Source: an uncultured archaeon
GTDB taxonomy: Archaea > Asgardarchaeota > Lokiarchaeia > Sigyniarchaeales > Promethearchaeaceae
Direction: 5' to 3'
Assembly (NCBI GenBank): GCA_964426185.1
Contig: CAYRPF010000004.1
Coordinates: 1,444 to 33,443, forward strand
Length of the DNA stretch: 32,000 nucleotides
Each line of letters opens with the position of its first letter. Within the stretch, counting starts at the first letter, position 1. Shown here piece by piece: positions 1,519 through 24,308 of this stretch. The translations under genes and the position numbers were made by a program. The notes under the pieces are model-generated. The model did no database searches. It was not told the origin of the DNA and worked only from the letters and a program-made list of their open reading frames with translations.

Positions 1519-4116
1519 ATGAGTTTCAATTTAATTCATATGGGGCTTTATTCTCCAGAAAATCATATCGATCATCAGTGGATTTGTGATAGTTTGGGTT
1601 TATCCGGAGAATGGGGTCAGAAAATGTATCTTACGTTGTTAAATTCAATCCGAAACTATGCAAATTGTATAGCTCCACAAAGCCCTAAAAGCCAAAGAAC
1701 CCCTAAAAGCTCAACATTAGATGGTTCACCTTATGAACAATGGTATCAAGATTTAGCACCATATTATCCCCCAGTAGAGTTGACCCACGAGCTTTTTGCC
1801 AAACATGCACTGCTTTACTCAATTGTAATTGCCATTCTTTCAAAAATCACAACAACTCATTTTGCTCGCTTGCAGAAATACTTACCAATTCCTCCATACT
1901 TCGCTTGGATTACTGCTGATAATGAAGTAAGTGGTGTTTTAAACGAGTTGAAGGTTTTTATTGCAGACTTTTCTTTAGAACCGGAAGATTTGTTTGCGGA
2001 AATTTATCAAGATATTTTCATCAATTCTACCCGACACATTCAAGGAGAATTCTATACTAATGAGGTACTCTGTGAATTGATGGTAAATGAATCATATCAA
2101 TGGGGAAATAAGGTTTTGGATCCAACATGCGGTTCAGGAACTTTTTTATTGATGGTTGCTAAGAAAATTCTGGAATCTTCTCATTCGAGAGAGGAAAAAG
2201 TATCGGCTTTAAAGAAATTGTATGGCGTTGACTGCAATCCTTTGGCTTGTTTGATGACTCAAGCCAACCTTCAAAATTTAATCTCTTTTTACCAGATGAA
2301 GCTCTTTCTATTTCCAATTTTTCACAGAAATGGTCTGGAAATTATTCCCCAAGATTTATCTCTCGAAATGCATGATAAGGTAATTATTGAGCATGAAGCA
2401 AGACCCAAAATTAATGGAAGAAGGGATGAAGAAAATAAAAGTGCGAGCGAAGTGGCTAAAAAACAGAGTAAAATTCGACCGGATGAAGATAACTTGAAGT
2501 GGGATCTCGTGATCGGAAATCCACCATGGCTGGTTCTCAATGGTATCCCTTCCCAAACTGTACAAGCCCGAATAAAATCATTGGGCAAAGAGTTGAACAT
2601 CATTCGAGGAGGTAAATTTGCCACCAGTACCGAAATAACCACCATCTTTTGGCAAAAAATGGTGCGAGACTTTCTCAAGCCAAGTGGAATCATTCATTTT
2701 GTAGTCCCAGCTGGAATTGCTTCTGGAGACCAACATGCTCTTTTTCGGCGGTTCGACAAGGTGAGCGGGGTGGAGATTTGGGATTTTGATTTTGATTTTT
2801 TCAGAATTCACAGTCTTTGCTTGAAAGCTCACAAAATGAGTGAACAAATGAATAATATCTCCGACCAACCATTTGTCGAAAGTTACAACCATTTAACTCC
2901 TTATCCGAAAATTCGCTGGAAAAAACTGCATTGGGATGCCCCAAAAAAGAAATTGGTTTTTGAATCCACCGAGGAGTATATACCGATTATCATAGAACAT
3001 AATACTAACTCAAAACAGTCAACCATTCCTTTCACAAATACCGCCCGTGCTCCAACGTATCAGATGAAAAATTCGTTGGTATTAATCGGAAGATTTGCAC
3101 CTAAAACTCAATTGGAAGCCCTTTTTGGCCGCTCTAGCTCATTAAATCTATCTATGAAATCACAATCTCCCTATAAAAATCTTTTTCGACAAGGTGCTTC
3201 TTTGGTTCCGAGAAATTTAATTTTCGTAGATATTCATGAAAGTAAAATTCCTGATAAAGCAACTCAAAAAGCGGAATCTATGGATTTGGTGCAAATTTCC
3301 CCAGCGGAATCTTTGCAATCAAAAAAAGATAGCACTTGGAATTTTAAAGCCTATGATTCTGTGCCGATCGAGCGGAAATACCTTTTTAAAGTTGCAAAAA
3401 GTACCGGACTGCTCTCTTTCTATTATTACCAATTCTATAATGTCGTTCTACCTCTTGAAAGGCTTGATGTGCAAAATACAAATCCATTAAATTCAGCAAA
3501 AATTACACTTCCAAATGCCCCTTACGCCCGAAAACATTTTCAGAAACTTATCCGCCAGTATTCTCAAAATATTAAATCCGGCGCTAAAATAACACATCTA
3601 TTTGACCGATTAAATTACGGTCGTGCTCTTACAGATCCTAAACAATATAAAGTTCCCAAGGTCATCTTTGCTGGAATCGGAAGCAATGTAAAAGCTGCCA
3701 TCATTCGCCAGCCTGCCGTGATTGACACTTCACTGTATTTCTATGTCCCAAAATCCATTGGAGAAGCATACTACTTGATCGGGATCTTAAATTCGGATTT
3801 TATTATTTCGTTTGCTCGACTAGCAGGTAGTACAGGGGCTAACGGTAGTCTCCGAAATATTCATAAAACGCCCTTAAAACTGCCTATTCCTACCTTTAAT
3901 GCTGCCCATGAAGTTCATTCTCAAATATCATCTGCTGCCATGGAAATCGAAATGTATGTAGAGAAGTTCATTTCGAAATCATTAGAGAAAGATCCAGGTC
4001 TGGAAACTAAAGTTAAAAGTCTTCAAAATAAATTGTTAATTGATCCTATTTATCGCTTAAAGCTTATCGAGTTGACTCAATGGGTTCAAAATTTGATTGG
4101 AAATAACCTAATGTGA
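1519..4116 (+). CDS. N6-adenine DNA methyltransferase, gamma class, type IIG/Eco57I-like MTase + target-recognition region, with no evident nuclease domain
   Basis: GEFYT (motif X), VLDPTCGSGTFL (motif I), YGVDCNP and DLVIGNPPW (motif IV). The C-terminus has the YYLIGILNS...LPIP pattern of TaqI-C-like TRDs. Confidence 0.85.
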   Translation: MSFNLIHMGLYSPENHIDHQWICDSLGLSGEWGQKMYLTLLNSIRNYANCIAPQSPKSQRTPKSSTLDGSPYEQWYQDLAPYYPPVELTHELFAKHALLYSIVIAILSKITTTHFARLQKYLPIPPYFAWITADNEVSGVLNELKVFIADFSLEPEDLFAEIYQDIFINSTRHIQGEFYTNEVLCELMVNESYQWGNKVLDPTCGSGTFLLMVAKKILESSHSREEKVSALKKLYGVDCNPLACLMTQANLQNLISFYQMKLFLFPIFHRNGLEIIPQDLSLEMHDKVIIEHEARPKINGRRDEENKSASEVAKKQSKIRPDEDNLKWDLVIGNPPWLVLNGIPSQTVQARIKSLGKELNIIRGGKFATSTEITTIFWQKMVRDFLKPSGIIHFVVPAGIASGDQHALFRRFDKVSGVEIWDFDFDFFRIHSLCLKAHKMSEQMNNISDQPFVESYNHLTPYPKIRWKKLHWDAPKKKLVFESTEEYIPIIIEHNTNSKQSTIPFTNTARAPTYQMKNSLVLIGRFAPKTQLEALFGRSSSLNLSMKSQSPYKNLFRQGASLVPRNLIFVDIHESKIPDKATQKAESMDLVQISPAESLQSKKDSTWNFKAYDSVPIERKYLFKVAKSTGLLSFYYYQFYNVVLPLERLDVQNTNPLNSAKITLPNAPYARKHFQKLIRQYSQNIKSGAKITHLFDRLNYGRALTDPKQYKVPKVIFAGIGSNVKAAIIRQPAVIDTSLYFYVPKSIGEAYYLIGILNSDFIISFARLAGSTGANGSLRNIHKTPLKLPIPTFNAAHEVHSQISSAAMEIEMYVEKFISKSLEKDPGLETKVKSLQNKLLIDPIYRLKLIELTQWVQNLIGNNLM

Positions 4117-4153: not shown

Positions 4154-5311
4154 TTAAGGCGAACAAACATCTTTTAGGTGCTTTGGTGGAAATGTGAGAT
4201 TACGACCTCGAACCCATTCATGTGTTCGACCCACAAGAATAGTCCGAATTCGCACAATCTGCCGCAGCTCCTTGATATTTCTGGCGCCCATTAAACTCAT
4301 GGTAATTTTCATCTGCGTAATAATTTTCAAAAACCAATTTTTGAGGTTTTCCTCATCTGGATATCCAAAATCCTCCATAATCTCAATTAACACCGGGTAA
4401 GCAAAACTTACCAGATCCGCACCCAAAGCTAATGCTTTAACTGCCTCTCGACCGTTTCGAATTCCACCCCCCACAATAAGAGGTATATCCCGATTTTCCG
4501 GCCGCAGTGAGATATCCAGTAAACTCCAAACAGTCGGAATACCCCAAAAATCGAAAGGTCGCTTGATTGGAGGATAAGTTTGCTTTTGTGAGGTTGTTAA
4601 CCCTTTCACTGTTTCAATCCTTGCAATTGAGGTTCCACCCACCCCTTGAATGTTTATTCCTGCCACTCCGACATCCCATAACGGTCTTATGTCTTCATTA
4701 CTTAGGCCGGTTGTAAAACTTTTAATAAATACAGGCACATGCAATTGATACGTTAGATTTCGTAATCGATCAACCAATCCTTGATAACCTGTATTTTGTG
4801 GATCAACCAATATATCAAGTAGAGGGGATACCCAGATTTCCACTCCATCAGCCTTGATGGAATCCACAATTTTCTGAACTGCTTTTATATAATCCGGAGT
4901 TTTCATTATGACAGTTCCCGAAATATTGGCTAACACTAACCCATTTGGATTCTTTTCTCGAATTATTTGAAAACTCTCCAAAATATCTGGATTTACTTTT
5001 TCTTCTAAAAGATAGCGCTGATCTCCTACACCTTGTGCAATTTTGTATTTTGCGGTAAATTCGGCTATTTTTTCATTAATCGGGGTGAATTTCTTATGTC
5101 CTCCAGTAATTGATCCCACACAAATAGGATATTTCAAGTGTTTCCCCATGAAATCGATGGACAAATCTACATCATTAATACCTACTGGTGTCAAGGCGTT
5201 TGGAATAAAATATACCTCTTTCCAGTAATTTTTTCCATGATATTGGATATCCTCTTTTAAAACCGTATCCATGGTCTTTAATTGATACCGCAAAAAATCT
5301 TCGGGTTTCAT
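4154..5311 (-). CDS. Type 2 isopentenyl-diphosphate isomerase (IDI-2) homologue with degenerate substrate-binding motifs
   Basis: FMN TIM-barrel motifs PIxxxxITGG, GVGDQR, ANI, GGTS, WGIPT and GGIRNGREAVKALALGAD. The canonical RKxxH, HLNxxQE and KEVG motifs are altered. Confidence 0.8.
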   Translation of the reverse strand: MKPEDFLRYQLKTMDTVLKEDIQYHGKNYWKEVYFIPNALTPVGINDVDLSIDFMGKHLKYPICVGSITGGHKKFTPINEKIAEFTAKYKIAQGVGDQRYLLEEKVNPDILESFQIIREKNPNGLVLANISGTVIMKTPDYIKAVQKIVDSIKADGVEIWVSPLLDILVDPQNTGYQGLVDRLRNLTYQLHVPVFIKSFTTGLSNEDIRPLWDVGVAGINIQGVGGTSIARIETVKGLTTSQKQTYPPIKRPFDFWGIPTVWSLLDISLRPENRDIPLIVGGGIRNGREAVKALALGADLVSFAYPVLIEIMEDFGYPDEENLKNWFLKIITQMKITMSLMGARNIKELRQIVRIRTILVGRTHEWVRGRNLTFPPKHLKDVCSP

Positions 5312-5596: not shown

Positions 5597-6649
5597 TTAA
5601 AGGCTCTTGAAGTAATCGGAATATTCTACAACATATTCCATATTATTAACGTATTTTATTGATTCAATTTTCTTAATTTGTAAATTTAATTCTTGCTTTG
5701 TAATTATGGGAAAATTAAAATACTCATTAATATATTTCGTAGGACCATTCATTTTTATCCTTTCGTTGATGAATTTTCTGTGTGAATCTATTCTATTTCT
5801 TAAATATTCGTTAATTTCATCTAATGAGTTAATTAATCTTGAGTGAATTGTTTCTTTTATATTCTTATCAATATCAATGCCAATACTATTTCTTTCAGAA
5901 GCTATTGCTGCAAGGGTTGTCGTTCCAGTTCCCACAAATGGATCTAAAACAACATCTCCTTTCACAGAATACATATTAATTAAACGATACGCTAATTCAA
6001 AGGGGAAAGCAGCACTCCTTTCTCGGGATTTTTTATTGTTTAAGTTTTGAGATATTCCTTTAAAGTCCCAAACATCAGAAAACCAAACATTCCTTTCTTC
6101 CCAAAAGAAAGCACTTTTCCTTCGGTTAACTTTTTGCTCTTGTTTTTTGAATAATCTTTTGTCTCCTTTTCTAAATATAAGAATATATTCATGTTCTAAT
6201 GTTACATACGCCCCTGGAGGATACATACCAGATCCCATGAATTTATTTGGAGCATTTGTCTGTTTTCTCCAAATTATATCTGGTAATGATTGAAATCCAA
6301 GTTCATGAAATTTGTTAATGATTTCTGAGTGTGAAGGATATAATCTAAAAATTTTATTCACAGTTCTTGTAGCGTCTCCAATATTTATACACGCAATTCC
6401 CCCCTGTGTTAAAACACGAGAAACTTCCTCCCATACTTTGTTTAATTCCTTGTGCATTAGTTTAAATGCGAGATTTCCATTACCGTTGTCTAAAGCGGTT
6501 CTAATGTCTGGGTTTTGTTTTGAGAAGATTTCATCCCACATTTCAATCATAGGGTAAGGAGGAGATGTTATTACCAGTTCAATAGATTCATCTTGAATTT
6601 GTGATAATTTTTGGGCTTCCTGGAAAAGCAATTTGTGATTCGTTTTCAT
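5597..6649 (-). CDS. Beta-class N4-cytosine DNA methyltransferase, M.MthZI/Zim-like (probable CTAG specificity)
   Basis: TSPPYPM precedes DPFVGTGTT (beta order). Blocks INIGDATR, WRKQTNAPNKFMGSG, EHEYILIFRK, FWEERNxWFSDVW and PFELAYRLINMYS match my recollection of the M.MthZI/haloarchaeal Zim family. Confidence 0.85.
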   Translation of the reverse strand: MKTNHKLLFQEAQKLSQIQDESIELVITSPPYPMIEMWDEIFSKQNPDIRTALDNGNGNLAFKLMHKELNKVWEEVSRVLTQGGIACINIGDATRTVNKIFRLYPSHSEIINKFHELGFQSLPDIIWRKQTNAPNKFMGSGMYPPGAYVTLEHEYILIFRKGDKRLFKKQEQKVNRRKSAFFWEERNVWFSDVWDFKGISQNLNNKKSRERSAAFPFELAYRLINMYSVKGDVVLDPFVGTGTTTLAAIASERNSIGIDIDKNIKETIHSRLINSLDEINEYLRNRIDSHRKFINERIKMNGPTKYINEYFNFPIITKQELNLQIKKIESIKYVNNMEYVVEYSDYFKSL

Positions 6650-9867: not shown

Positions 9868-9918
9868 ATCTAATATTGAGATAATTTCCGAGCAAAAATC
9901 TAATATTGAGATAATTTC
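9868..9918. repeat. 21-bp perfect direct repeat with 30-bp period, duplicating the GTPase 3' end
   Basis: ATCTAATATTGAGATAATTTC at 9868-9888 and 9898-9918. Confidence 0.95.
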
Positions 9919-10901
9919 GGTAATTCTTTTGTTAATAACCTAAACACCAGCATTACAAATGCTTCTTCTACATTGGAATTTGTTAGTGCGCTGGTTTCGA
10001 TAAATTCCATATTGTATTTATTAGCTAATTGGATTGCTTCGGTATTTGAAACTTCTCTGGGCAGATCAGATTTATTTCCGATAATTAATCCCTCATATTC
10101 GCAACCTGCAAATTTATCCAGTTCTGCTTTCCATTCTGGCAAATGCTCAAAGGTTTTCCTATCATTTAGGTCAAAGACAAAGAGTGCCGCTTTAGTTCCA
10201 ATATAATAGGTTTTTCTCACTCGAGCGAAGACCTTTTGGGAACCAATATCATAGATGTTTAATTGGATTATATTTTGCAGAAACTTGTATTTGTGGGTCA
10301 TGATATTGAGTCCAATTGTTGGGCGAAAATCTACTGGAAAGACTCCATCTACAAATCGATTTACCAGACTGGTTTTCCCTACTCCAGAATCCCCTATTAA
10401 AGTATATTTGAATATCCATTGCTGAGGTTCATTAAACTTGGAATTAAGTAACTTTGCTCCCAATATTTCACCCAATCGGGGGATCTCTACGTTGATCCCA
10501 ACCTCTTGAGTGAATAAACGATAAAATTTCTCAGTAGCTATATATAAGAAAGGTTGAATTTTGTCAATCCAAGCATTATTTGAAACAATGTAAATAAAAA
10601 TCCAATTTTCAATAAAGATGCAGATAATTCGATAATTTTCTGTATCAAAAATGGCATTGGTTAGTGGACTATCCATATTATATTTCATAATGCGTTGTAA
10701 TATAGGATCTAATTCAGAAAAAAGAGAATAATCTTTCATGTTTAAATTCTTTAACATGATTTTTTCTCGATCTTGAAATTTATAAGAATAAACTAAATTC
10801 CCTCCTCTTTCCATTATATTAATTGCAAGTAATTCTGGAATGCTATATGCTAAATTTTCAGACAGAGAGGCTAGAATCTCTTCGTTATGCATTAATTTCA
10901 A
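9900..10901 (-). CDS. Rab/Ras-like small GTPase fused to an N-terminal Roadblock/longin-like domain (likely start ATG 10892)
   Basis: G1 GDSGVGKTS, G2 FRPTIG, G3 YDIGSQ, G4 NKSD, G5 ETSAL, and no CAAX. The about 150-aa N-terminus has a helix/beta-hairpin pattern (LLAINIMERGGNLVYS) of the Roadblock/longin type. Confidence 0.88.
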   Translation of the reverse strand: MKLMHNEEILASLSENLAYSIPELLAINIMERGGNLVYSYKFQDREKIMLKNLNMKDYSLFSELDPILQRIMKYNMDSPLTNAIFDTENYRIICIFIENWIFIYIVSNNAWIDKIQPFLYIATEKFYRLFTQEVGINVEIPRLGEILGAKLLNSKFNEPQQWIFKYTLIGDSGVGKTSLVNRFVDGVFPVDFRPTIGLNIMTHKYKFLQNIIQLNIYDIGSQKVFARVRKTYYIGTKAALFVFDLNDRKTFEHLPEWKAELDKFAGCEYEGLIIGNKSDLPREVSNTEAIQLANKYNMEFIETSALTNSNVEEAFVMLVFRLLTKELPKLSQY

Positions 10902-14534: not shown

Positions 14535-15494
14535 GTGGAAAAACATCAAATAACCGCATATATTTACATAATTTTGGCGGTTTTCTTATGGGCAACTATC
14601 GAAATTGTCATGAAGTTAATTCAAAATAACAGCAGCCCCTATTTAATGAATTTTTTTCGCTTTCTCATTGGGGGAATCACCCTTTTAATCTATGCCGTTT
14701 CTTCTCATAAAATGCGAACTATTTGGGGATTCTTTAAAGCTTTTCCTCAGTACTATATACCTGCAGCAGTGATTGGATTAACTGGTGGTTTGCTTCTATA
14801 TTCTTATGGAACCGTAATAACCCAAGCCTTTATGTCTGCTGCGATTATAAGTTCAAATCCTATTTTTATTTCTGTGTATATGATCTTTCTTCAAGGAGAA
14901 AAAAGATCACCTAGTAAAATTGTAGGTATAATTCTGGGATTTTTAGGTATGTTGTTAATTATCACCAACTTCCAATTTGCGGAATTTTTCCAAGATGATT
15001 ACGTTAAAGGGAATTTATTAGTTCTCGCAGGAACATGCTTTTGGGTGGTAGATTTAATTTTAGGTAAATTAGTTATGAAAAAATCTGTTCAAAATCTAAT
15101 AGTTGTGAATACTGAAGGCGATTCTCACGCTTCCGAAAATTTCAACATGAAAGTTTCCAGTTTAGATTTTAATCTGGTTACATTTTTAGTTGCTTCTTTA
15201 GTAATGCTTCCTTATTTGATATTTTCAAGTGAATGGAATAATATGATTCATCAATCTGCTGAAACATGGCTTGGATTATTCTATATAGGAATTTTTACTA
15301 CTGGAATTGCTTATTTATTTTTTTTTAAAGGCTTAGAATCCCTTGAAGCATCAAAAGGATCAAATTTTTTTTACTTGAAACCGATTTTTGCAACTATTCT
15401 TGCTTTTTTCATTTTAAATGAAGCCCCCAGTATCTATTTTTATGTTGGTGTTGTAATTGAAGTGATTGCACTAATTTTAATATCAAATAATTAG
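14535..15494 (+). CDS. EamA/DMT-family transporter
   Basis: About 10 hydrophobic helices in two repeats; FFRF, SNPIF, GEK and YLKPIFATILAFFILNE motifs. Confidence 0.9.
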   Translation: MEKHQITAYIYIILAVFLWATIEIVMKLIQNNSSPYLMNFFRFLIGGITLLIYAVSSHKMRTIWGFFKAFPQYYIPAAVIGLTGGLLLYSYGTVITQAFMSAAIISSNPIFISVYMIFLQGEKRSPSKIVGIILGFLGMLLIITNFQFAEFFQDDYVKGNLLVLAGTCFWVVDLILGKLVMKKSVQNLIVVNTEGDSHASENFNMKVSSLDFNLVTFLVASLVMLPYLIFSSEWNNMIHQSAETWLGLFYIGIFTTGIAYLFFFKGLESLEASKGSNFFYLKPIFATILAFFILNEAPSIYFYVGVVIEVIALILISNN

Positions 15495-15538
15495 GAACGA
15501 AAGCAATAATAATAATGGATTCACATTAATGCACATTA

Positions 15539-17140
15539 ATGGATCCATCATCATCTATTACGACTAATTTCTTTTACAATGAATTTGACTTGACTATTCC
15601 GACCAAACCCAGCAAACTGCATCAAATTTTTCCAGATAATATTCTTTACGTTATAATTTGCTGTTTAGCAATCAAAATCGTGTTTTTTCTTTACAGCCTC
15701 TATTGTTATCAGCATGGAATTCTGGTTGCTTCACAAAACATTTTCAATCGTTTTGCAAATTATTGGTGGGATTTAGAAGGATTAAGTGATTTTACTGGGG
15801 ATTATATAAATTGGCATGCAAATTGGTTAAATGGAGAAAAACTTTACTCAGCTGCTTTTAAAGGGCGTTATCTTTATCCTCCTTTGTATTATTATATGAT
15901 TCATATTTTTGCTCATTGGACTGTTTTTTCCGCTCCTATTGTAATATTTATTTGCAATAACTTAACGGGGTATTTTGTATTTCGGTTAGCTAAAAATCTA
16001 GGTGCCACTCCAAAGGCTGCTAAAATTATGGCAGTTCTTTGCCTTATATCTCCCTTTAACTTGTTTTACAGCGATTTTGTATGGCAGAATACTGGTGTGG
16101 TAACCACTTTTCTGGTCATTTCAATGTTTAAAATTTCACAAGAAAAATATCACTGGGGGATGATTTGGCTGGGTATTGCTATGAGTATCAAGCAAGTTGC
16201 GTTTTTTTTCTATCCTTTTTTCGTGATCGGTGTGGTATATTCCCCTTCAATATTCAAAAAAAAATTTAATGATTCGAAAATTCCTCTTGTGAATTATATT
16301 CGTAATATACCTATTCGTTCTCTCTTATTTTACGGTTTAATTCCGTTGGAAATCTTTTTAATTGCTTCATTTCCCTATCTGTTTGAAGATCCCATGAAAT
16401 ATGTCAACATTCTTTTTGGTAATCATCGAAGCTCTAATTATGAATGGATTTACCAGATTTTTTCCAACATTGTTCCTGTAGAAAGTAATTCTACTTTTAT
16501 CGGATATTTTCCTGACTTAATGCAAAATCCGGATAACCGTCCTTACCAAGTTAATTTCCGTACATCATTACCAATTGCATTTGCATGGATCGGGTATAAG
16601 TTGGGAATTCCTACAAATATTACAGCAAGTTTTGCGGTTTTATTTCATATGCAGTTATTTCTCTATATAATTACCATTCTTTTGGGGGGTGCATATTGGT
16701 GGTTCTTAAATCGCACAAAATTCTCTTCAGATCAAGAATATTATTGGTTTATGTGGTATATTGGAGGTCTTTCTCTATTTACAGTCATACTTTTTGCAGA
16801 AATTGGGATATATAAATATTATTTAGTATCTCTTACTCCATTTTGGGCAATGTTTAGTGTATTGGGCCCTTTAAACCATGATCGATGGACGCGATCACAG
16901 AAATATTCGCTAAGTGAGTTATTTAGCCACCCAAGTCGACTCAAAAATCAATTTTATGGAGGTGGATCATATTTTCATGTAATAGAGCAAATATTTTTGC
17001 AAATTACAATGATTCTTTTCAATAAATGGTTGGCTGTGGCTGTTTTTTATTTACCTCTCTATATTTTTGGAATTACATTCCTTTTTGAAAGGATGTTTCG
17101 ATCAGAATTTCATGATATTTTTCAGAGAAAGCGCTGTTAA
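15539..17140 (+). CDS. Polytopic GT-C fold glycosyltransferase (GT87/DUF2029/PIG-M-like)
   Basis: Acidic loop after TM1 (WWDLEGLSDF..D), YLYPPLYY, NxxTG, GIAMSIKQ and about 11-12 TM segments. Confidence 0.7.
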   Translation: MDPSSSITTNFFYNEFDLTIPTKPSKLHQIFPDNILYVIICCLAIKIVFFLYSLYCYQHGILVASQNIFNRFANYWWDLEGLSDFTGDYINWHANWLNGEKLYSAAFKGRYLYPPLYYYMIHIFAHWTVFSAPIVIFICNNLTGYFVFRLAKNLGATPKAAKIMAVLCLISPFNLFYSDFVWQNTGVVTTFLVISMFKISQEKYHWGMIWLGIAMSIKQVAFFFYPFFVIGVVYSPSIFKKKFNDSKIPLVNYIRNIPIRSLLFYGLIPLEIFLIASFPYLFEDPMKYVNILFGNHRSSNYEWIYQIFSNIVPVESNSTFIGYFPDLMQNPDNRPYQVNFRTSLPIAFAWIGYKLGIPTNITASFAVLFHMQLFLYIITILLGGAYWWFLNRTKFSSDQEYYWFMWYIGGLSLFTVILFAEIGIYKYYLVSLTPFWAMFSVLGPLNHDRWTRSQKYSLSELFSHPSRLKNQFYGGGSYFHVIEQIFLQITMILFNKWLAVAVFYLPLYIFGITFLFERMFRSEFHDIFQRKRC

Positions 17141-17164
17141 TACGAACCTACAACTTCTTTACCG

Positions 17165-17935
17165 ATGTGCAATTTAAAACCTTATCATATGACCAAGCCG
17201 TTATCCATCAAGAATCTAATCTTGGGGAAATTTACCCGAAAACGATTATTACAATATATGATTATCAGTGCTGGGATATTTTTTACATTATTCATAATAT
17301 CTTTGGCGTTCTATCCAAAATCGCTAAATTACAGTATTCTTACTCATACAATTTCTTATTTGGGCGATTATACTCAGAATCCAAAGGGCTGGTTATTTTT
17401 TACTTTATCATTTATCGAACTTGGACTTTCTTTTATTCCTTTGATTATATACATTCATAGGCGGGTAATTTTAATCGAAAGAATGTGGGGTATTATAGGT
17501 TCTCTTCTTTTAATAAGTGGAAGCTTCGGGGTAGTGTTAATTGCCTTTTTCCCGGATGTGCACGGAGCGGATCTTTTCAATGATATGTCCTTCGGGAAAG
17601 CTCACGTCATTGTTTCGTTTATCACTGTTATTTTATTTTCTGCAGGTTTTACAGTATATGGAATTCTTTTTTTGGTAAATGCATATCCAAAATTGCACGA
17701 AGGTAAACCAGATTTGTATCCAAATGCACGTACACGCTATGTATTCTTTGCATTTGCTGTTTTTGGTTTAGGAACTTTGATCACCCAAATTATTTCGAAT
17801 ATTCGTAATTATGCATGGCCAGGTCCAGGAATCTATAGTTTTCCATTATGGGAATGGTTACTATCTTTCACTTTTTTTATTTCTATATATTGGCTTGCTT
17901 ATACTCTTCCAAATGAAATTCCTCCATCAGAATGA
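17165..17935 (+). CDS. DUF998 / Frag1-DRAM-Sfk1-like membrane protein
   Basis: YS..THTISYLG loop, conserved H in KAHVIVS, C-terminal PLWEW; about 6 TM. Confidence 0.65.
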   Translation: MCNLKPYHMTKPLSIKNLILGKFTRKRLLQYMIISAGIFFTLFIISLAFYPKSLNYSILTHTISYLGDYTQNPKGWLFFTLSFIELGLSFIPLIIYIHRRVILIERMWGIIGSLLLISGSFGVVLIAFFPDVHGADLFNDMSFGKAHVIVSFITVILFSAGFTVYGILFLVNAYPKLHEGKPDLYPNARTRYVFFAFAVFGLGTLITQIISNIRNYAWPGPGIYSFPLWEWLLSFTFFISIYWLAYTLPNEIPPSE

Positions 17936-17947
17936 ATTAAAAAATCA

Positions 17948-18655
17948 CTAATTTAGGGAATTTTTCGGAAATATTAAGTAAATTGCATAAAGATAGAAAA
18001 TATAAGACCCCAATAACAACCATTCCCACAGTGGAAGATACATCATAAAAATGAATATTTTCCAGAAATAATAAAGCCAGTAAAATGTGAAAGCAGTTAA
18101 AAAACCTAACATAACTAAATCTGTAATAAGATAGATAAGAACCAATTGCCAAATTTTTATCCAACCTTTTCCATCTTTAATTGTTTTGATGAGAGTATAC
18201 ATATTGAAGGAAAATGCTGTAAAAAATCCAAAAAAGGCTAACCCTGCAAAAAGATAATGAATAATTCCAGAGTCTTCAGAAAAAATTCCAACTCCGATTA
18301 CACCGATGGCGGAAAAAATGAGGATGATGGTGAAAATATATGTGGTTATTCTTGCAATTGAGCGTAACTGCTGAAAAAGAAAAAAAATATAAGGAATTAT
18401 ACCAATACCTGCTACAACCATTCCGAATCTCCAAAAATAATGTCCAATTGGGTTTTTCAAGGTGTTTCCTAAACTACTTACGCTCATTCGAAGAAATTGA
18501 TATTGTCCCGGAAAAGACCATAGTGCATATCCATAAGAACAAAGCAAAATAATTAAAAGAATGAAAAGAAAGATTCCATATGTATGTTTATGGCTTTTTC
18601 CGGTTAAGAAATTTGTAATTGATTTAATAAAATTGCGTTGGGAAGTCGATTGCAT
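17948..18655 (-). CDS. DUF998 / Frag1-like membrane protein, paralogue of 17165-17935
   Basis: SVSSLG...NPIG, GVGIFSED..IHYLFAGLAF and PLWEW motifs; about 6 TM. Confidence 0.65.
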   Translation of the reverse strand: MQSTSQRNFIKSITNFLTGKSHKHTYGIFLFILLIILLCSYGYALWSFPGQYQFLRMSVSSLGNTLKNPIGHYFWRFGMVVAGIGIIPYIFFLFQQLRSIARITTYIFTIILIFSAIGVIGVGIFSEDSGIIHYLFAGLAFFGFFTAFSFNMYTLIKTIKDGKGWIKIWQLVLIYLITDLVMLGFLTAFTFYWLYYFWKIFIFMMYLPLWEWLLLGSYIFYLYAIYLIFPKNSLN

Positions 18656-18736: not shown

Positions 18737-20992
18737 TTATTCTTTAAAGGTAGCAAGAATACGATATAGTGGTATAAAATCATCTAATGATTCAATATTG
18801 TGATATTCAACCTTGTATTCAGGATAAGTTGCACAATATTCTTCTAATGAAAAATTTCCCAAGCCAAATAGAATAATTTCAAAATCGGGAATTTCTGAAA
18901 TATCCTTAATTAACATAGGTAAGGGAGGTAAATCATCAGGATCGGCATCAGTAAATAACATCAGCTTTCTTGGCCGGTTTTCTTTATCTGATCCCATTTT
19001 TTTTAACAACCTGCGGGTATCCTTAAGTGGTGAATTAAAATGAGAAAAATTCCCCGATTCTAGTTGAAGTTTTTCTTGCAGATTATGAATAAATGAAACT
19101 AAAACTGAAGTACTGTAGATATTTGTGTTTAGCCATTCATCTTGATTTATATTTTGTATTATTTCTTCTTTATCACTGAAAACTAGCACGGATATACGTT
19201 CATCTAACTTACGAGATATTTTTTCCAATAAATATAAATAAAAGAATAGTAAAATGCTTGAAAGGCGTGATAGCTGAGTATTTTTGGTTATCTTAACAAA
19301 AGGTGAATCTAAAGATAATTTTTGAAAGAATTTTTCTACTTTTAATGCGTCATTATAATTTTCACCTACATGAATATCTCGGGCTAATAGACTTCGAGTT
19401 AAATCAATGACCATTATTGTATCAATAGGGAGAATCCCTTCAATTTCTATCTCAATTTCTGAATTGGCAGTAACTTTTCCAATTTCTTGAGGTCCAAGTG
19501 CAGGTGAGCACGATTTAAATTTAAAAATTGCTTGAAAATCGGGATGTTCCACTTGAAGTCCAGGAAAAATTAGGTAATTTAAATAGAAGATTTTTATGCT
19601 TTCTTTTTTACTTTGGATGTTGGAAATTATTAGATTATAACTTTCTGAAGTCTGACGCCATAATTCCGCACCAAGATATAATTTTTTCAAGTTTACTATT
19701 TTTTTCATTCGTTTATTTACAGAAACTAAATCATTGCTCCTGATATTCTTTCCCAAAAGATTAGGATCAATCTCGATTGCTTCATCAGAAATATTAGCTT
19801 CAACTTGGACTTTGGAATAAGTAGAACGTGAATTTGGAACGTTTATTCTTGTTAAGGCAACCACGTCTCCATTTTTTATTCCTAAAGCCCGCGAATTTCG
19901 GAAATTTATCCGGACCTTGCCGACCATATCTGAATTTAATTTGGGCTTTAAAGTTAATTCTTTAACTTGGATGATTGGAGGTTCCATTGAATAGACGACT
20001 AATTTAGGCTCTGAAATATTAATCAATTCGTTATCTTCCCACATTTCTTTATCCATTATTATAATATCTTCTTCTGAAGCACCGAAAATTACAGGTGCTA
20101 TACCATGGTTTCGTGTGATGGGATCTTCCCATCCTAAAAAGGCACCTGGAAAAAGGTTCAATTTTTTCGCCAATTTCTCATGAATTTGAAGATTTCCTCC
20201 CAAATCTTCGTCTTGAACTCGCAATAAGGTAATCTGTGAATTAGGCAATATTTGTTGGAGTTGAGAAATTTCAATCATATCCGGATATTGTTCTAAGGAT
20301 AAATTTGCAATCGATTTTGGAATTGATTCTGGGATCGGTGAACCAATTATTTCCTTTGTATCACTATGTTTTTGTTCTTGATTTTTTGACTTTTTTTCTT
20401 GCTTTTTAGTTAATCCTTCTTGCTTTTCAATATTTATTTCTTGTAGAATTGATGTATCGTTTTTATATTCTTGAGCATTCGTAATTAGAGGTTTTTCTTC
20501 AATATCAGTTTGATCTGAATGATTTTTTTCAGTAGGTTTTCTAGAGAATTTTTCTAAGTTATCCAGGGCAGCAGAGACCTCTGTTTTTAACGACTCGGAT
20601 TCTTTTAAATCATCTGTTTTTTTGTCTAATTTTGATTTTTCTCTAATAAATTCTTCGAAAAGTTGAGCTTGGCTCTTTAACGCCGTTTCATCTACTTGAA
20701 ATTCTTGAAATCTTTCCTTCTCAGAGATAATTTTGGCAGCATTTTCGATACTAACGAACTTTGCTTGAGTGAAAGGGAGAGAATTTAAAAGTTTAGGGAG
20801 AATAACTGTTCCTTCTTCAACATTTGGGCTGATTTTCATCGGAAATATAAAATAATATTGCCAGCGTTTATTTGCTGAAATGAGTCGGATCTTACCTCCT
20901 TCTGGTAAGCCAATCTTAACTGCATCTATTTCATTCATAACACAATGGGAAAATAAGTCTAACTCGCAGAGAAATTTCAAATTAATTCTCAT
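18737..20992 (-). CDS. Multi-domain protein: repeated double-psi beta-barrel (Cdc48/VAT N-like) domains + Cdc48 domain-2-like + C-terminal vWA domain; no AAA ATPase
   Basis: DPBB-like half-repeats (MNEIDAVKIGLPEGGKIRL; IHEKLAKKLNLFPGAFL; VRINFRNSRALGIKNGDVVAL...IRSNDLVSV). Cdc48_2-like FKFKSCSP...GKVTANSEIEI. vWA elements MVIDLTRS, VLVFSD, MLFTDA and ILFGLG. No Walker A motif. Confidence 0.65.
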   Translation of the reverse strand: MRINLKFLCELDLFSHCVMNEIDAVKIGLPEGGKIRLISANKRWQYYFIFPMKISPNVEEGTVILPKLLNSLPFTQAKFVSIENAAKIISEKERFQEFQVDETALKSQAQLFEEFIREKSKLDKKTDDLKESESLKTEVSAALDNLEKFSRKPTEKNHSDQTDIEEKPLITNAQEYKNDTSILQEINIEKQEGLTKKQEKKSKNQEQKHSDTKEIIGSPIPESIPKSIANLSLEQYPDMIEISQLQQILPNSQITLLRVQDEDLGGNLQIHEKLAKKLNLFPGAFLGWEDPITRNHGIAPVIFGASEEDIIIMDKEMWEDNELINISEPKLVVYSMEPPIIQVKELTLKPKLNSDMVGKVRINFRNSRALGIKNGDVVALTRINVPNSRSTYSKVQVEANISDEAIEIDPNLLGKNIRSNDLVSVNKRMKKIVNLKKLYLGAELWRQTSESYNLIISNIQSKKESIKIFYLNYLIFPGLQVEHPDFQAIFKFKSCSPALGPQEIGKVTANSEIEIEIEGILPIDTIMVIDLTRSLLARDIHVGENYNDALKVEKFFQKLSLDSPFVKITKNTQLSRLSSILLFFYLYLLEKISRKLDERISVLVFSDKEEIIQNINQDEWLNTNIYSTSVLVSFIHNLQEKLQLESGNFSHFNSPLKDTRRLLKKMGSDKENRPRKLMLFTDADPDDLPPLPMLIKDISEIPDFEIILFGLGNFSLEEYCATYPEYKVEYHNIESLDDFIPLYRILATFKE

Positions 20993-21086: not shown

Positions 21087-21476
21087 TTATTCTTCTTTGG
21101 GATAGGTTTCACTTATTTTCTTTGCGTAAAATCTAAAAACCGCAACAGTTTTTCCAAGATCTTTAATTGAACGTGATGCACCAATTAGGAAAAATTTACC
21201 TGCTGCCGAAATAACCATAAAACTTTTTTTCCCTCTTAATACGACCTCTATTAACTGATTATATCCAATTTTTTCTACAGAATCTGTTCCACTTTGTAAT
21301 AATACTGCTCCCATGGCACATAATGCATCAGGATCTATTTCATATTCAGGTACAGCTGAGAAGGCTAATCGCAATCCTTCCTTAGTAACCAATGCAAGTG
21401 CATCTAATTCCGTATTTTGTGTTATATTCGAAAGATAGGCAGAAAGTTTTTGAGCATCATTTTCATTCAACGACAT
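21087..21476 (-). CDS. Roadblock/LC7 (MglB/LAMTOR-like) domain protein
   Basis: 129 aa with LDALALVTKEGLRLA...DALCAMGAVL...EVVLRGKKSFMVI...LG, the Roadblock consensus pattern. Confidence 0.9.
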   Translation of the reverse strand: MSLNENDAQKLSAYLSNITQNTELDALALVTKEGLRLAFSAVPEYEIDPDALCAMGAVLLQSGTDSVEKIGYNQLIEVVLRGKKSFMVISAAGKFFLIGASRSIKDLGKTVAVFRFYAKKISETYPKEE

Positions 21477-21505: not shown

Positions 21506-22267
21506 TCAGAAATTCATTTTTTTCAGAAATTCAATTGCAATAACCTTTTGATCCTTAACTAATACTCTGGGGGCATAACCTTCCGCGAAAAATAAGCCTT
21601 CTGGAAGGGTTGAAATTGGTTCTAATACTCTTTCTATCGATTCTTTCCCCAAAAAAGATTGCTTCTTCTCAGTAACTGAGTAGGAATGATCTCCAACAAT
21701 TACCATTTCTCTTTCAAAACCTTCTGGAATGTCTTCCTTATCCAATAATTGAATGATTTCTTCCAATTTTTCTTTTGTTGGTGTGGAAGTTGTGGTTGAC
21801 GGTGCAGAACTGGTAAATAAATGATCATTTTGACCTGTGTATAATGGACCTGCTTGTTCAATTTGATTGTATCGGGATTTTAATTTAGAAATATTACGGG
21901 ATGATGGGGGTGAATTAGCTGGTTCGCGAAATTCCAATTCTTTTCCTTCTTCACGGATTTCACGTGCAAATCCCTCGCTTGGAATTTCTTCAATTGCTTC
22001 TAAAAAGTCTGGATCTTTATTCATATCCGCTTCTTCTAATGAAATTGAGCGATAACTAAGTCCTACTTGTGATCGTATATCTTGTGAGATTCGGGCACCG
22101 TTAAATTTAGACCTAACTGAAGCATTTGAGCCAATCCATAAATAAACATTTCTCTTTTTATCATCAACAACAACGTAACATTCATTACTTTCTAGCAATT
22201 TCTTTATGGGTGTTTCTTCCTTAATCTCGTGGGCTTCTCCATTTCCCTTGACAATGAAAAGTTGCAT
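21506..22267 (-). CDS. Single gelsolin-domain protein with Ser/Thr/Pro-rich linker and unrecognised C-terminal domain
   Basis: LESNECYVVVDD...VYLWIGSNAS...A matches the gelsolin LxSxDxFILD...YVWxG motif. Confidence 0.8.
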   Translation of the reverse strand: MQLFIVKGNGEAHEIKEETPIKKLLESNECYVVVDDKKRNVYLWIGSNASVRSKFNGARISQDIRSQVGLSYRSISLEEADMNKDPDFLEAIEEIPSEGFAREIREEGKELEFREPANSPPSSRNISKLKSRYNQIEQAGPLYTGQNDHLFTSSAPSTTTSTPTKEKLEEIIQLLDKEDIPEGFEREMVIVGDHSYSVTEKKQSFLGKESIERVLEPISTLPEGLFFAEGYAPRVLVKDQKVIAIEFLKKMNF

Positions 22268-24026: not shown

Positions 24027-24308
24027 TCAATCTTCACTATATTCGAAGAGTTCACCAAAAGCTTCTCTCTCCTCTTCGGTCATTGATTTTTCTTTTTTAG
24101 TTTCCGTAATAACCATCGTTTTTAAGGCGCGTTTCTTTTCCTTTTTATAAAAATTCCGATCTTTAACTATTTTTTTAATTTCTTTACTTTTTTGAACCCC
24201 ATTTACTTTGTCAATTGGAAAAGATTTTTTACAAACACGACAATAAAGTTCATTAGAATGCTTTTTTGGGTAAAGGAAATTATTACATACTGGACAGAAT
24301 TTCATCAT
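24027..24308 (-). CDS. RpoM/TFS/Rpb9-like N-terminal zinc ribbon protein lacking the C-terminal ribbon
   Basis: MKFCPVCNNFLYP...LYCRVC; no second CxxC pair and no QxRSADE motif. Confidence 0.75.
   Translation of the reverse strand: MMKFCPVCNNFLYPKKHSNELYCRVCKKSFPIDKVNGVQKSKEIKKIVKDRNFYKKEKKRALKTMVITETKKEKSMTEEEREAFGELFEYSED

Follow-up and report, generated by a model that had tools for sequence, protein, structure and literature searches.

An atypical and fast-evolving member of an Asgard-wide Cdc48N-vWA protein family, probably orphaned from its partner genes

The window analyzed here is a stretch of 32,000 nucleotides (nt) from an uncultured Asgard archaeon of the Lokiarchaeia, order Sigyniarchaeales (assembly GCA_964426185.1, contig CAYRPF010000004.1, positions 1,444 to 33,443 of the forward strand). 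On its minus strand, an open reading frame (ORF) at 18737..20992 encodes a protein of 751 amino acids (aa) that is an atypical member of an undescribed Asgard family built from known folds, in which a Cdc48-type N-domain is followed directly by a vWA domain. The window protein is probably a non-catalytic binding or scaffold protein, a fast-evolving and orphaned orthologue of this Asgard-wide Cdc48N-vWA family. The ORF starts with ATG, a start judged to be right because the closest relatives keep the same N-terminus. The nearest named relatives, from Lokiarchaeota and Ca. Harpocratesius, share 47-49% identity with it, and the GC content across the window is 31-40%. The protein is divided into five parts:

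20738..20992, minus strand, aa 1-85: barrel 1, an N-terminal double-psi beta-barrel (AlphaFold2 strand order, hhalign, Pfam)
20291..20737, minus strand, aa 86-234: linker rich in K, E, S and Q, mostly disordered (model confidence, composition)
19967..20290, minus strand, aa 235-342 with a folded core at 250-335: barrel 2, a double-psi beta-barrel (model confidence, hhalign)
19436..19966, minus strand, aa 343-519: complete Cdc48/p97-type N-domain, made of an Nn double-psi barrel and an Nc beta-barrel
18740..19435, minus strand, aa 520-751: vWA domain with a degenerate MIDAS (adhesion site dependent on metal ions)

The full-length AlphaFold2 model, based on a 36-sequence alignment, has a predicted local distance difference test score (pLDDT) of 79.9, with ~94 over aa 230-640, while residues 124-223 are disordered (pLDDT < 50). 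The core of 409 aa (aa 343-751) was modeled with a pLDDT of 89.8 and a predicted TM-score (pTM) of 0.84. One strand-helix pattern is repeated in three segments of the model (aa 5-84, 252-335 and 345-427), and we take its order to be that of the double-psi barrel. In hhalign comparisons with the Cdc48-N profile of the family, aa 1-100 matched with a probability of 95.6% (E 1.3e-8) and aa 235-342 with a probability of 97.6% (E 3.5e-12), which relates both additional barrels to that domain. Barrel 1 also gave a sub-threshold Pfam match to Molydop_binding, a family of double-psi-barrel fold, at aa 17-67 (E 5.4e-5), and it is 48-59% identical to its counterparts in the orthologues P0004, P0005 and P0006. 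The linker contains 23 K, 23 E and 15 S over its 149 residues. Barrel 2, which is found in the long forms of the family, carries the family motif GWEDPxTR and has a pLDDT of ~94.

The vWA alpha/beta fold is present, and it comes directly after the N-domain, at the place where an AAA+ module would sit. A pattern check found no Walker A motif in the 751 residues, and the protein has no Pfam match to an AAA family. The MIDAS is reduced to D530-L-T-R-S534 and T681-D682-A, the loop threonine being gone. An initial annotation made from the letters of the window had described three double-psi-barrel-like segments, a charged linker after the first of them, a Cdc48 domain-2-like segment followed by a vWA fold, a partly retained MIDAS (DLTRS, TD) and no P-loop. 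This observation was correct in all parts, and the barrels on which it depended are predicted in the AlphaFold2 model. Searched by itself, the protein gave only sub-threshold matches in Pfam (here VWA_2, E 3.4e-4), a chance-level match in the PDB when searched as a single sequence (RPB5, E 0.3) and no match in NCBIfam.

Family membership is established by a core profile of ~405 aa covering Cdc48-N and vWA (alignment A2). The window protein matched it over the whole core with an hmmsearch E of 5.2e-123, and with an E of 6.5e-115 in the genome search. A search of cluster-representative proteins retrieved 41 at E <= 0.001, mostly from Asgard archaea; the named members come from Promethearchaeota/Lokiarchaeota, Sigyn-, Hel-, Heimdall-, Odin- and Thorarchaeota, Asgardarchaeia and one Korarchaeota. 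The survey of homologues across Asgard lineages that the initial annotation had called for found core profile matches in 259 of 400 Asgard genomes, including 66 of the 90 high-quality ones. Pfam VWA is matched by 30 of the 36 aligned members and CDC48_N by 5 of the 36. Many members are short (~410-430 aa) and consist of exactly the Cdc48-N plus vWA core, to which two extra barrels are added in Lokiarchaeial and sister-class forms of 680-1010 aa. The consensus of the metal site in the family is DxSxS..T..TDG. Shape and feature searches of the ESM Atlas returned the family's own cluster and generic vWA clusters, with AAA ATPases carrying Cdc48-N in the shape search only; no IML1 cluster was among the matches.

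The family is inherited together with three other genes. At five loci from families other than the window's own (L003, L051-L054), the Cdc48N-vWA gene is followed in the same order by a gene that we call c5, a gene for a GCS2-type ATP-dependent carboxylate-amine ligase and an Amidohydro_2 gene. The order is the same at a sixth locus (L004), where only c5 was not detectable, and sister genera within the window's taxonomic family have the three genes no more than a few genes away from the Cdc48N-vWA gene. Among the conserved columns of the Amidohydro_2 hydrolase are those of an HxH motif as well as other His and Asp residues. c5 is an Asgard-only protein with no PDB sequence match, no consistent Pfam family and no informative Atlas neighbour. 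The Amidohydro_2 family occurs in 249 of the 400 Asgard genomes. Its presence agrees with that of the Cdc48N-vWA family in the 30 per-family tallies printed, except for two low-count cases (f15, 1/12 against 0/12; f19, 3/19 weak matches against 0/19), and one genus is without either. At a further locus that holds the conserved gene set (L090), the hydrolase gene comes after one for a coiled-coil protein, and the ligase takes the form of a 1191-aa fusion. On a metagenome contig (L006), three Cdc48N-vWA paralogues stand in tandem, with the gene of a 287-aa zinc-ribbon protein placed among them; a transglutaminase-core gene lies upstream of this array and a GCS2 gene downstream, and the combination of zinc ribbon and vWA is reminiscent of ArnA/ArnB.

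Searches of the window's genome (92% complete) and of two congeners, one of which is a single contig of 4.4 Mb, detected neither c5 nor the ligase nor the hydrolase. Because these partner genes are missing from three genomes, one of them a single contig, we presume that they were lost in this genus. The metal site differs in the window's clade: of 29 family proteins, 26 have a canonical MIDAS, and the degenerate ones are the window protein and its two closest relatives. The pattern of conservation was also turned around. Between canonical members, the vWA domain is more conserved than the N-domain in 99% of 325 pairs, by a mean of +13.7 points over 83 comparably diverged pairs, whereas the three comparisons within the window's clade gave N-domain and vWA identities of 62 vs 49, 38 vs 31 and 44 vs 33, respectively. 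The window protein is 49% identical to the orthologue in a congener; its syntenic neighbours are, by estimate, roughly 74% identical to theirs. It is the second most divergent among 16 syntenic orthologue pairs, and in this clade it appears, as judged by sequence identity, to evolve about twice as fast as its neighbours. The gene is intact in the window and at the loci of its two relatives (L001, L002), which come from lineages only 35-49% identical to the window protein.

A second measure of this acceleration comes from the genes that lie directly upstream, when gene context is compared over 27 loci. In Lokiarchaeia the order is YjeF, a protein of 250-330 aa (gelsolin), a protein of 126-137 aa (Roadblock) and then the Cdc48N-vWA gene, and the window keeps the same order:

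21087..21476, minus strand: Roadblock/LC7 protein, 129 aa, separated from the Cdc48N-vWA gene by a gap of 94 nt on its upstream side (Pfam Robl_LC7, E 1.1e-4)
21506..22267, minus strand: homologue of two-domain gelsolin (2DGel), 253 aa, the second gene upstream of the Cdc48N-vWA gene

The Roadblock protein is 90-91% identical to its orthologues at L001 and L002 and 79-82% identical to those of sister genera, as compared with 22-49% for the Cdc48N-vWA protein in the same comparisons. Against canonical orthologues the window protein has 22-27% identity and the adjacent Roadblocks have 53-82%, whereas the Cdc48N-vWA protein normally tracks the Roadblock closely.

The assignments of the two neighbours were made firmer by family profiles. 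The Roadblock profile matched the PDB Roadblock proteins 7f8m and 9jue (E 6e-5 and 8e-5), and the gelsolin profile matched chain 7whg_G, titled "Lokiarchaeota gelsolin (2DGel)" (E 3.7e-11). A weaker second gelsolin match lies elsewhere in the genome (G000:C20:26466-26735). Roadblock adjoins the Cdc48N-vWA gene at 11 of the 27 loci, and gelsolin accompanies it at all 11 Lokiarchaeial loci that have Roadblock; in Lokiarchaeia a Roadblock gene always comes after the gelsolin gene. Even at two loci where the surroundings differ and Roadblock is inverted (L005, L040), gelsolin, Roadblock and the Cdc48N-vWA gene are still adjacent. The gelsolin family is wider than the Cdc48N-vWA family, being present in 128 of 151 genomes including families without the latter, and the gelsolin-Roadblock pair occurs without it at L093 and L096. 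In the distant family f21, a divergently oriented gelsolin gene stands beside a coiled-coil gene, the hydrolase and the Cdc48N-vWA gene, with the ligase beyond on the opposite strand. The idea that Roadblock is a mere bystander was therefore only partly confirmed: the pair occurs without the family, yet gelsolin lies beside the gene set in f21. In a complex prediction, two Roadblock copies with aa 230-751 reached a score of 0.33 vs 0.02 for the best control, the runs giving 0.44, 0.01 and 0.33 with a contact agreement between runs of at least 2% and a partner pLDDT of at least 78. Of 80 solved complexes, 58 reached the mark for this score, as did 2 of 110 mismatched pairs; scores that reached the mark and were no higher than 0.60 were given by only 7 of the 80 solved complexes and by both passing mismatches. 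The prediction thus lends weak support to a contact between the Cdc48N-vWA protein and Roadblock.

How might such a protein work? In typical members, the intact vWA metal site would dock an acidic residue of a partner, and the barrels would bind a peptide or else a small, beta-grasp-like ligand. This partner may belong to the co-inherited set of c5, GCS2-type ligase and Amidohydro_2 protein, or may be a substrate of it. In the Lokiarchaeial long forms, two more barrels sit on a flexible tether. With the three partner genes presumably lost from the window's genus, the window's clade shows a decayed metal site and a relaxed constraint on the vWA domain, while the barrels stayed better conserved and the gene intact. 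For the window protein this probably leaves a role as a scaffold that works without metal, by way of the barrels and the surface of the vWA domain, possibly in concert with the upstream Roadblock/gelsolin pair. Given an intact gene, conserved barrels and the presumed loss of the enzyme partners, we read the window protein as an orphaned adaptor that may persist by virtue of its barrels or because its vWA surface has been put to a new use.

Several points weigh against this explanation. In family f3, ~8 of the listed metagenome-assembled genomes have the protein and no hydrolase and ~11 show the reverse, a pattern that assembly gaps could also give. A single-contig genome (G188) keeps a canonical MIDAS and c5 was not found there; a perfect correlation between metal site and c5 was rejected on this ground. 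The proposed link between the metal site and the enzymes draws on co-occurrence and on one event in a single clade. The fast evolution could be an adaptation to a new partner instead of relaxed constraint. Finally, the top rank of DEPDC5/Iml1 in structural searches with the predicted model is compatible with a deeper relation, which has to be weighed next.

It is possible, although we consider it unlikely, that a true homology links the Cdc48N-vWA core with the NTD-SABA part of DEPDC5/Iml1, so that the family would be a relative or precursor of the GATOR1/SEACIT scaffold and serve as a platform for Roadblock- or longin-type regulators of small GTPases. Foldseek against the PDB placed the same eight chains first whether the full model or the core was used, all from GATOR1 or SEA-complex entries. 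Three are from the yeast SEA complex (8adl_W, 8ae6_W, 9h4q_X) and were taken to be Sea1/Iml1 from their length and co-ranking, with entry titles as the only labels; five are from human GATOR1 (9v0j_C, 9xzy, 9o5e_H, 7t3a_A, 9o5a_B) and from their length can only be DEPDC5. For the core, the eight matches had E values of 6.5e-12 to 1.3e-9 over ~430-466 aligned columns spanning both domains, with 10-13% identity. The N-D1 parts of p97/Cdc48 ranked below them, starting at E 3e-9, and the top matches scored roughly 2-3 orders of magnitude better than p97 N-D1. Since DEPDC5/Iml1 was ranked first for the core, the shared domain order, a Cdc48-N-like domain directly followed by a vWA-like domain without an ATPase, is real, as the initial annotation had proposed.

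The literature and the distribution of the family also bear on such a relation. The NTD of Iml1/DEPDC5 has been likened to the N-domain of NSF/Sec18 and its SABA domain to a domain of Sec23, and the domain composition of Iml1/DEPDC5 is said to occur in no other protein (review PMC8534245). A survey of Asgard archaea for GATOR1 parts reported NPRL2-like longins only and no DEPDC5 homologue (bioRxiv 10.1101/2020.10.19.343400); another paper on Asgard archaea discussed longins only. The Cdc48N-vWA family is present in Heimdallarchaeota as well as in other Asgard lineages, and in Lokiarchaeia it has the Roadblock gene directly upstream with the weakly supported contact described above.

What stands against homology is that the likeness appears not to extend beyond the order of the domains. 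The TM-scores against the DEPDC5/Iml1 chains were 0.24-0.30 with a root-mean-square deviation (rmsd) of ~15 Å, which suggests that only one domain superposes at a time and that the arrangement differs, though the arrangement within the model itself is confident. Pfam IML1 (PF12257) had no match at the gene at E <= 10 in searches of the window's genome and five other Asgard genomes, nor any match in the Pfam scans of the window protein and the family members. The family profile matched the DEPDC5 chain 9xzy_H (E 1.6e-4), but this was rejected as specific evidence because the tandem DEPDC5 chain scores twice; with the N-domain profile alone, 9xzy_H ranked under designed barrels, TER94 and Cdc48, so that the match is on the level of any double-psi barrel. 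Taken singly, the domains resemble generic p97-N and a vWA of the p44/Rpn10/ArnB type, and by sequence the nearest vWA domains of the family profile are those of archaeal ArnB and ArnE (E 1.6e-13 and 3.6e-10). In rigid-body searches DEPDC5/Iml1 was not among the 50 matches listed, which is no proof of dissimilarity. Across Asgard archaea the family tracks the hydrolase and the ligase, not GTPases, and Roadblock pairs primarily with the gelsolin gene, also in lineages without the family. Both folds are ancient and widely shuffled, and the same order could arise twice.

The suggestion of the initial annotation that the gene may be an Asgard relative or precursor of the GATOR1 scaffold thus stands for the domain order; beyond it, the geometry, Pfam IML1 and the sequence signal show no specific kinship. 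The outcome that it had named as evidence to the contrary, a vWA domain that groups with generic prokaryotic MoxR-associated ones and has no specific likeness to DEPDC5/Iml1, was found in part, the vWA sequence being closest to the ArnB type. There remains a small chance that the Asgard core was the stock from which the eukaryotic NTD-SABA part of DEPDC5/Iml1 arose. The window's clade would then repeat the loss of metal site and enzymes in miniature, surviving as a metal-independent scaffold beside the gene of Roadblock, a GTPase-regulator fold, and an actin-regulator gene.

It is improbable that the gene is a decaying relic, functionless after partner loss and drifting to a pseudogene, as might be read from the three missing partner genes, the degenerate metal site, the rank of the gene among the syntenic pairs and the relaxed vWA constraint. 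The window and the two relatives at L001 and L002 keep a stop-free frame of 728-769 aa despite their low identity, these lineages share 48-59% identity in barrel 1 and 38-62% in the Cdc48-N domain, the fold is predicted with high confidence, and the position behind Roadblock and gelsolin is kept. The full-length frame, the conservation of the barrels, the confident fold and the kept position indicate continued purifying selection. Equally doubtful is a receptor or adaptor for ubiquitin-like proteins serving Cdc48 or the proteasome, in which a Ufd1-type Cdc48-N fold is joined to an Rpn10/p44-type vWA: the N-domain fold is that of the adaptor-binding domain of p97 and one family member (P0042) has a C-terminal ubiquitin-like domain, but this fusion is single and sub-threshold (Pfam E 3.1e-5, 24.1 bits vs a cut-off of 25.4), and no Cdc48, proteasome, ubiquitin, E1, E2 or E3 family was found among the window ORFs, the called genes of six related loci or the recurrent neighbours at 27 loci, so that the alternative raised in the initial annotation finds no support in the gene context.

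The reading of the window protein as an orphaned binding or scaffold protein has several consequences. The set of adaptor, ligase, hydrolase and c5 is a widespread and unstudied Asgard gene set. The window's genus offers a natural experiment: it lacks the three enzyme genes, and a collapse of both the metal site and the vWA conservation is confined to the window's clade, which would point to the purpose of the metal site. For experimental work, canonical orthologues suit the study of the system and the window copy suits the study of the barrels alone. Considering the statement that the domain composition of Iml1/DEPDC5 is unique and the survey that found only NPRL2-like longins, an Asgard family with the same two-domain front is also a concrete candidate for the origin of the Iml1/DEPDC5 scaffold front.

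Several other genes of the window were noted. The product of 9900..10901 (minus strand), 333 aa long, is a Ras/Rab-type small GTPase (Pfam Ras, E 6.9e-41) that is extended at its N-terminus by ~160 aa with no family match, and the congener locus L001 has a similar gene in the corresponding place. Directly downstream of the Cdc48N-vWA gene, 14535..18655 holds an EamA transporter, a GT87-like GT-C glycosyltransferase and two convergent membrane paralogues of the Frag1/DUF998 type. The 865-aa product of 1519..4116 (plus strand) is a type IIG-like methylase in which N6_Mtase, Eco57I and TaqI_C domains are fused; 5597..6649 (minus strand) encodes a separate N4/N6 DNA methylase, and between the two is an FMN_dh-family gene at 4154..5311. 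A 93-aa zinc-ribbon protein of the RPB9/TFS type is encoded at 24027..24308 (minus strand; Pfam Zn_ribbon_RPB9, E 3.7e-8), and its synteny with the YjeF gene is conserved.

Comparison with known systems places the window protein among families that share one or both of its folds. It has in common with Cdc48/p97/VAT, and also with PEX1-N, NSF-N and the Ufd1 UT3 domain, an N-domain made of a double-psi barrel and a beta-barrel. In contrast with Cdc48/p97/VAT, it has no AAA+ module, the vWA domain replaces D1, and the barrels are triplicated on a tether. The eukaryotic intracellular vWA scaffolds, namely TFIIH p44/Ssl1, proteasome Rpn10, Ku and the Sec23/24 trunk, are among the closest known systems. 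Unlike MoxR-associated vWA proteins, the family has no neighbouring MoxR-type AAA+ gene; no AAA/MoxR family was found among the window ORFs, the called genes of the six related loci or the recurrent neighbours at the 27 loci. ArnB and ArnE (VWA2) of Sulfolobus are vWA regulators of the archaellum network (PDB 8s05, 5a8j; PMC12852372), and ArnB, in which a beta-sandwich and a helical domain at the C-terminus are present, interacts after phosphorylation with the ZnF/FHA protein ArnA (PMC12852372). The window protein is related to ArnB by the vWA sequence. It differs in carrying Cdc48-N barrels and in ending at the vWA domain, beyond which the model has neither a sandwich nor a helical domain, and the Pfam scan of the window ORFs showed no FHA or ZnF gene adjacent to the Cdc48N-vWA gene.

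With DEPDC5/Iml1 the window protein shares a Cdc48/NSF-N-like domain directly followed by a vWA/Sec23-trunk-like domain and the lack of an ATPase. It is also like DEPDC5/Iml1 in having no complete metal site, unlike its canonical relatives with a perfect MIDAS. The differences are that the SHEN, DEP and CTD domains are not in the window protein, which ends with the vWA domain at aa 751, and that the two domains do not superpose together. The context of the family is the ligase and hydrolase set with gelsolin and Roadblock, not Rag GTPase or NPRL/longin genes, and no NPRL-type gene is among the window's ORFs. As judged from the predicted model, DEPDC5/Iml1 is the best-ranked solved counterpart of the shared domain order, and the match is one of fold order only.

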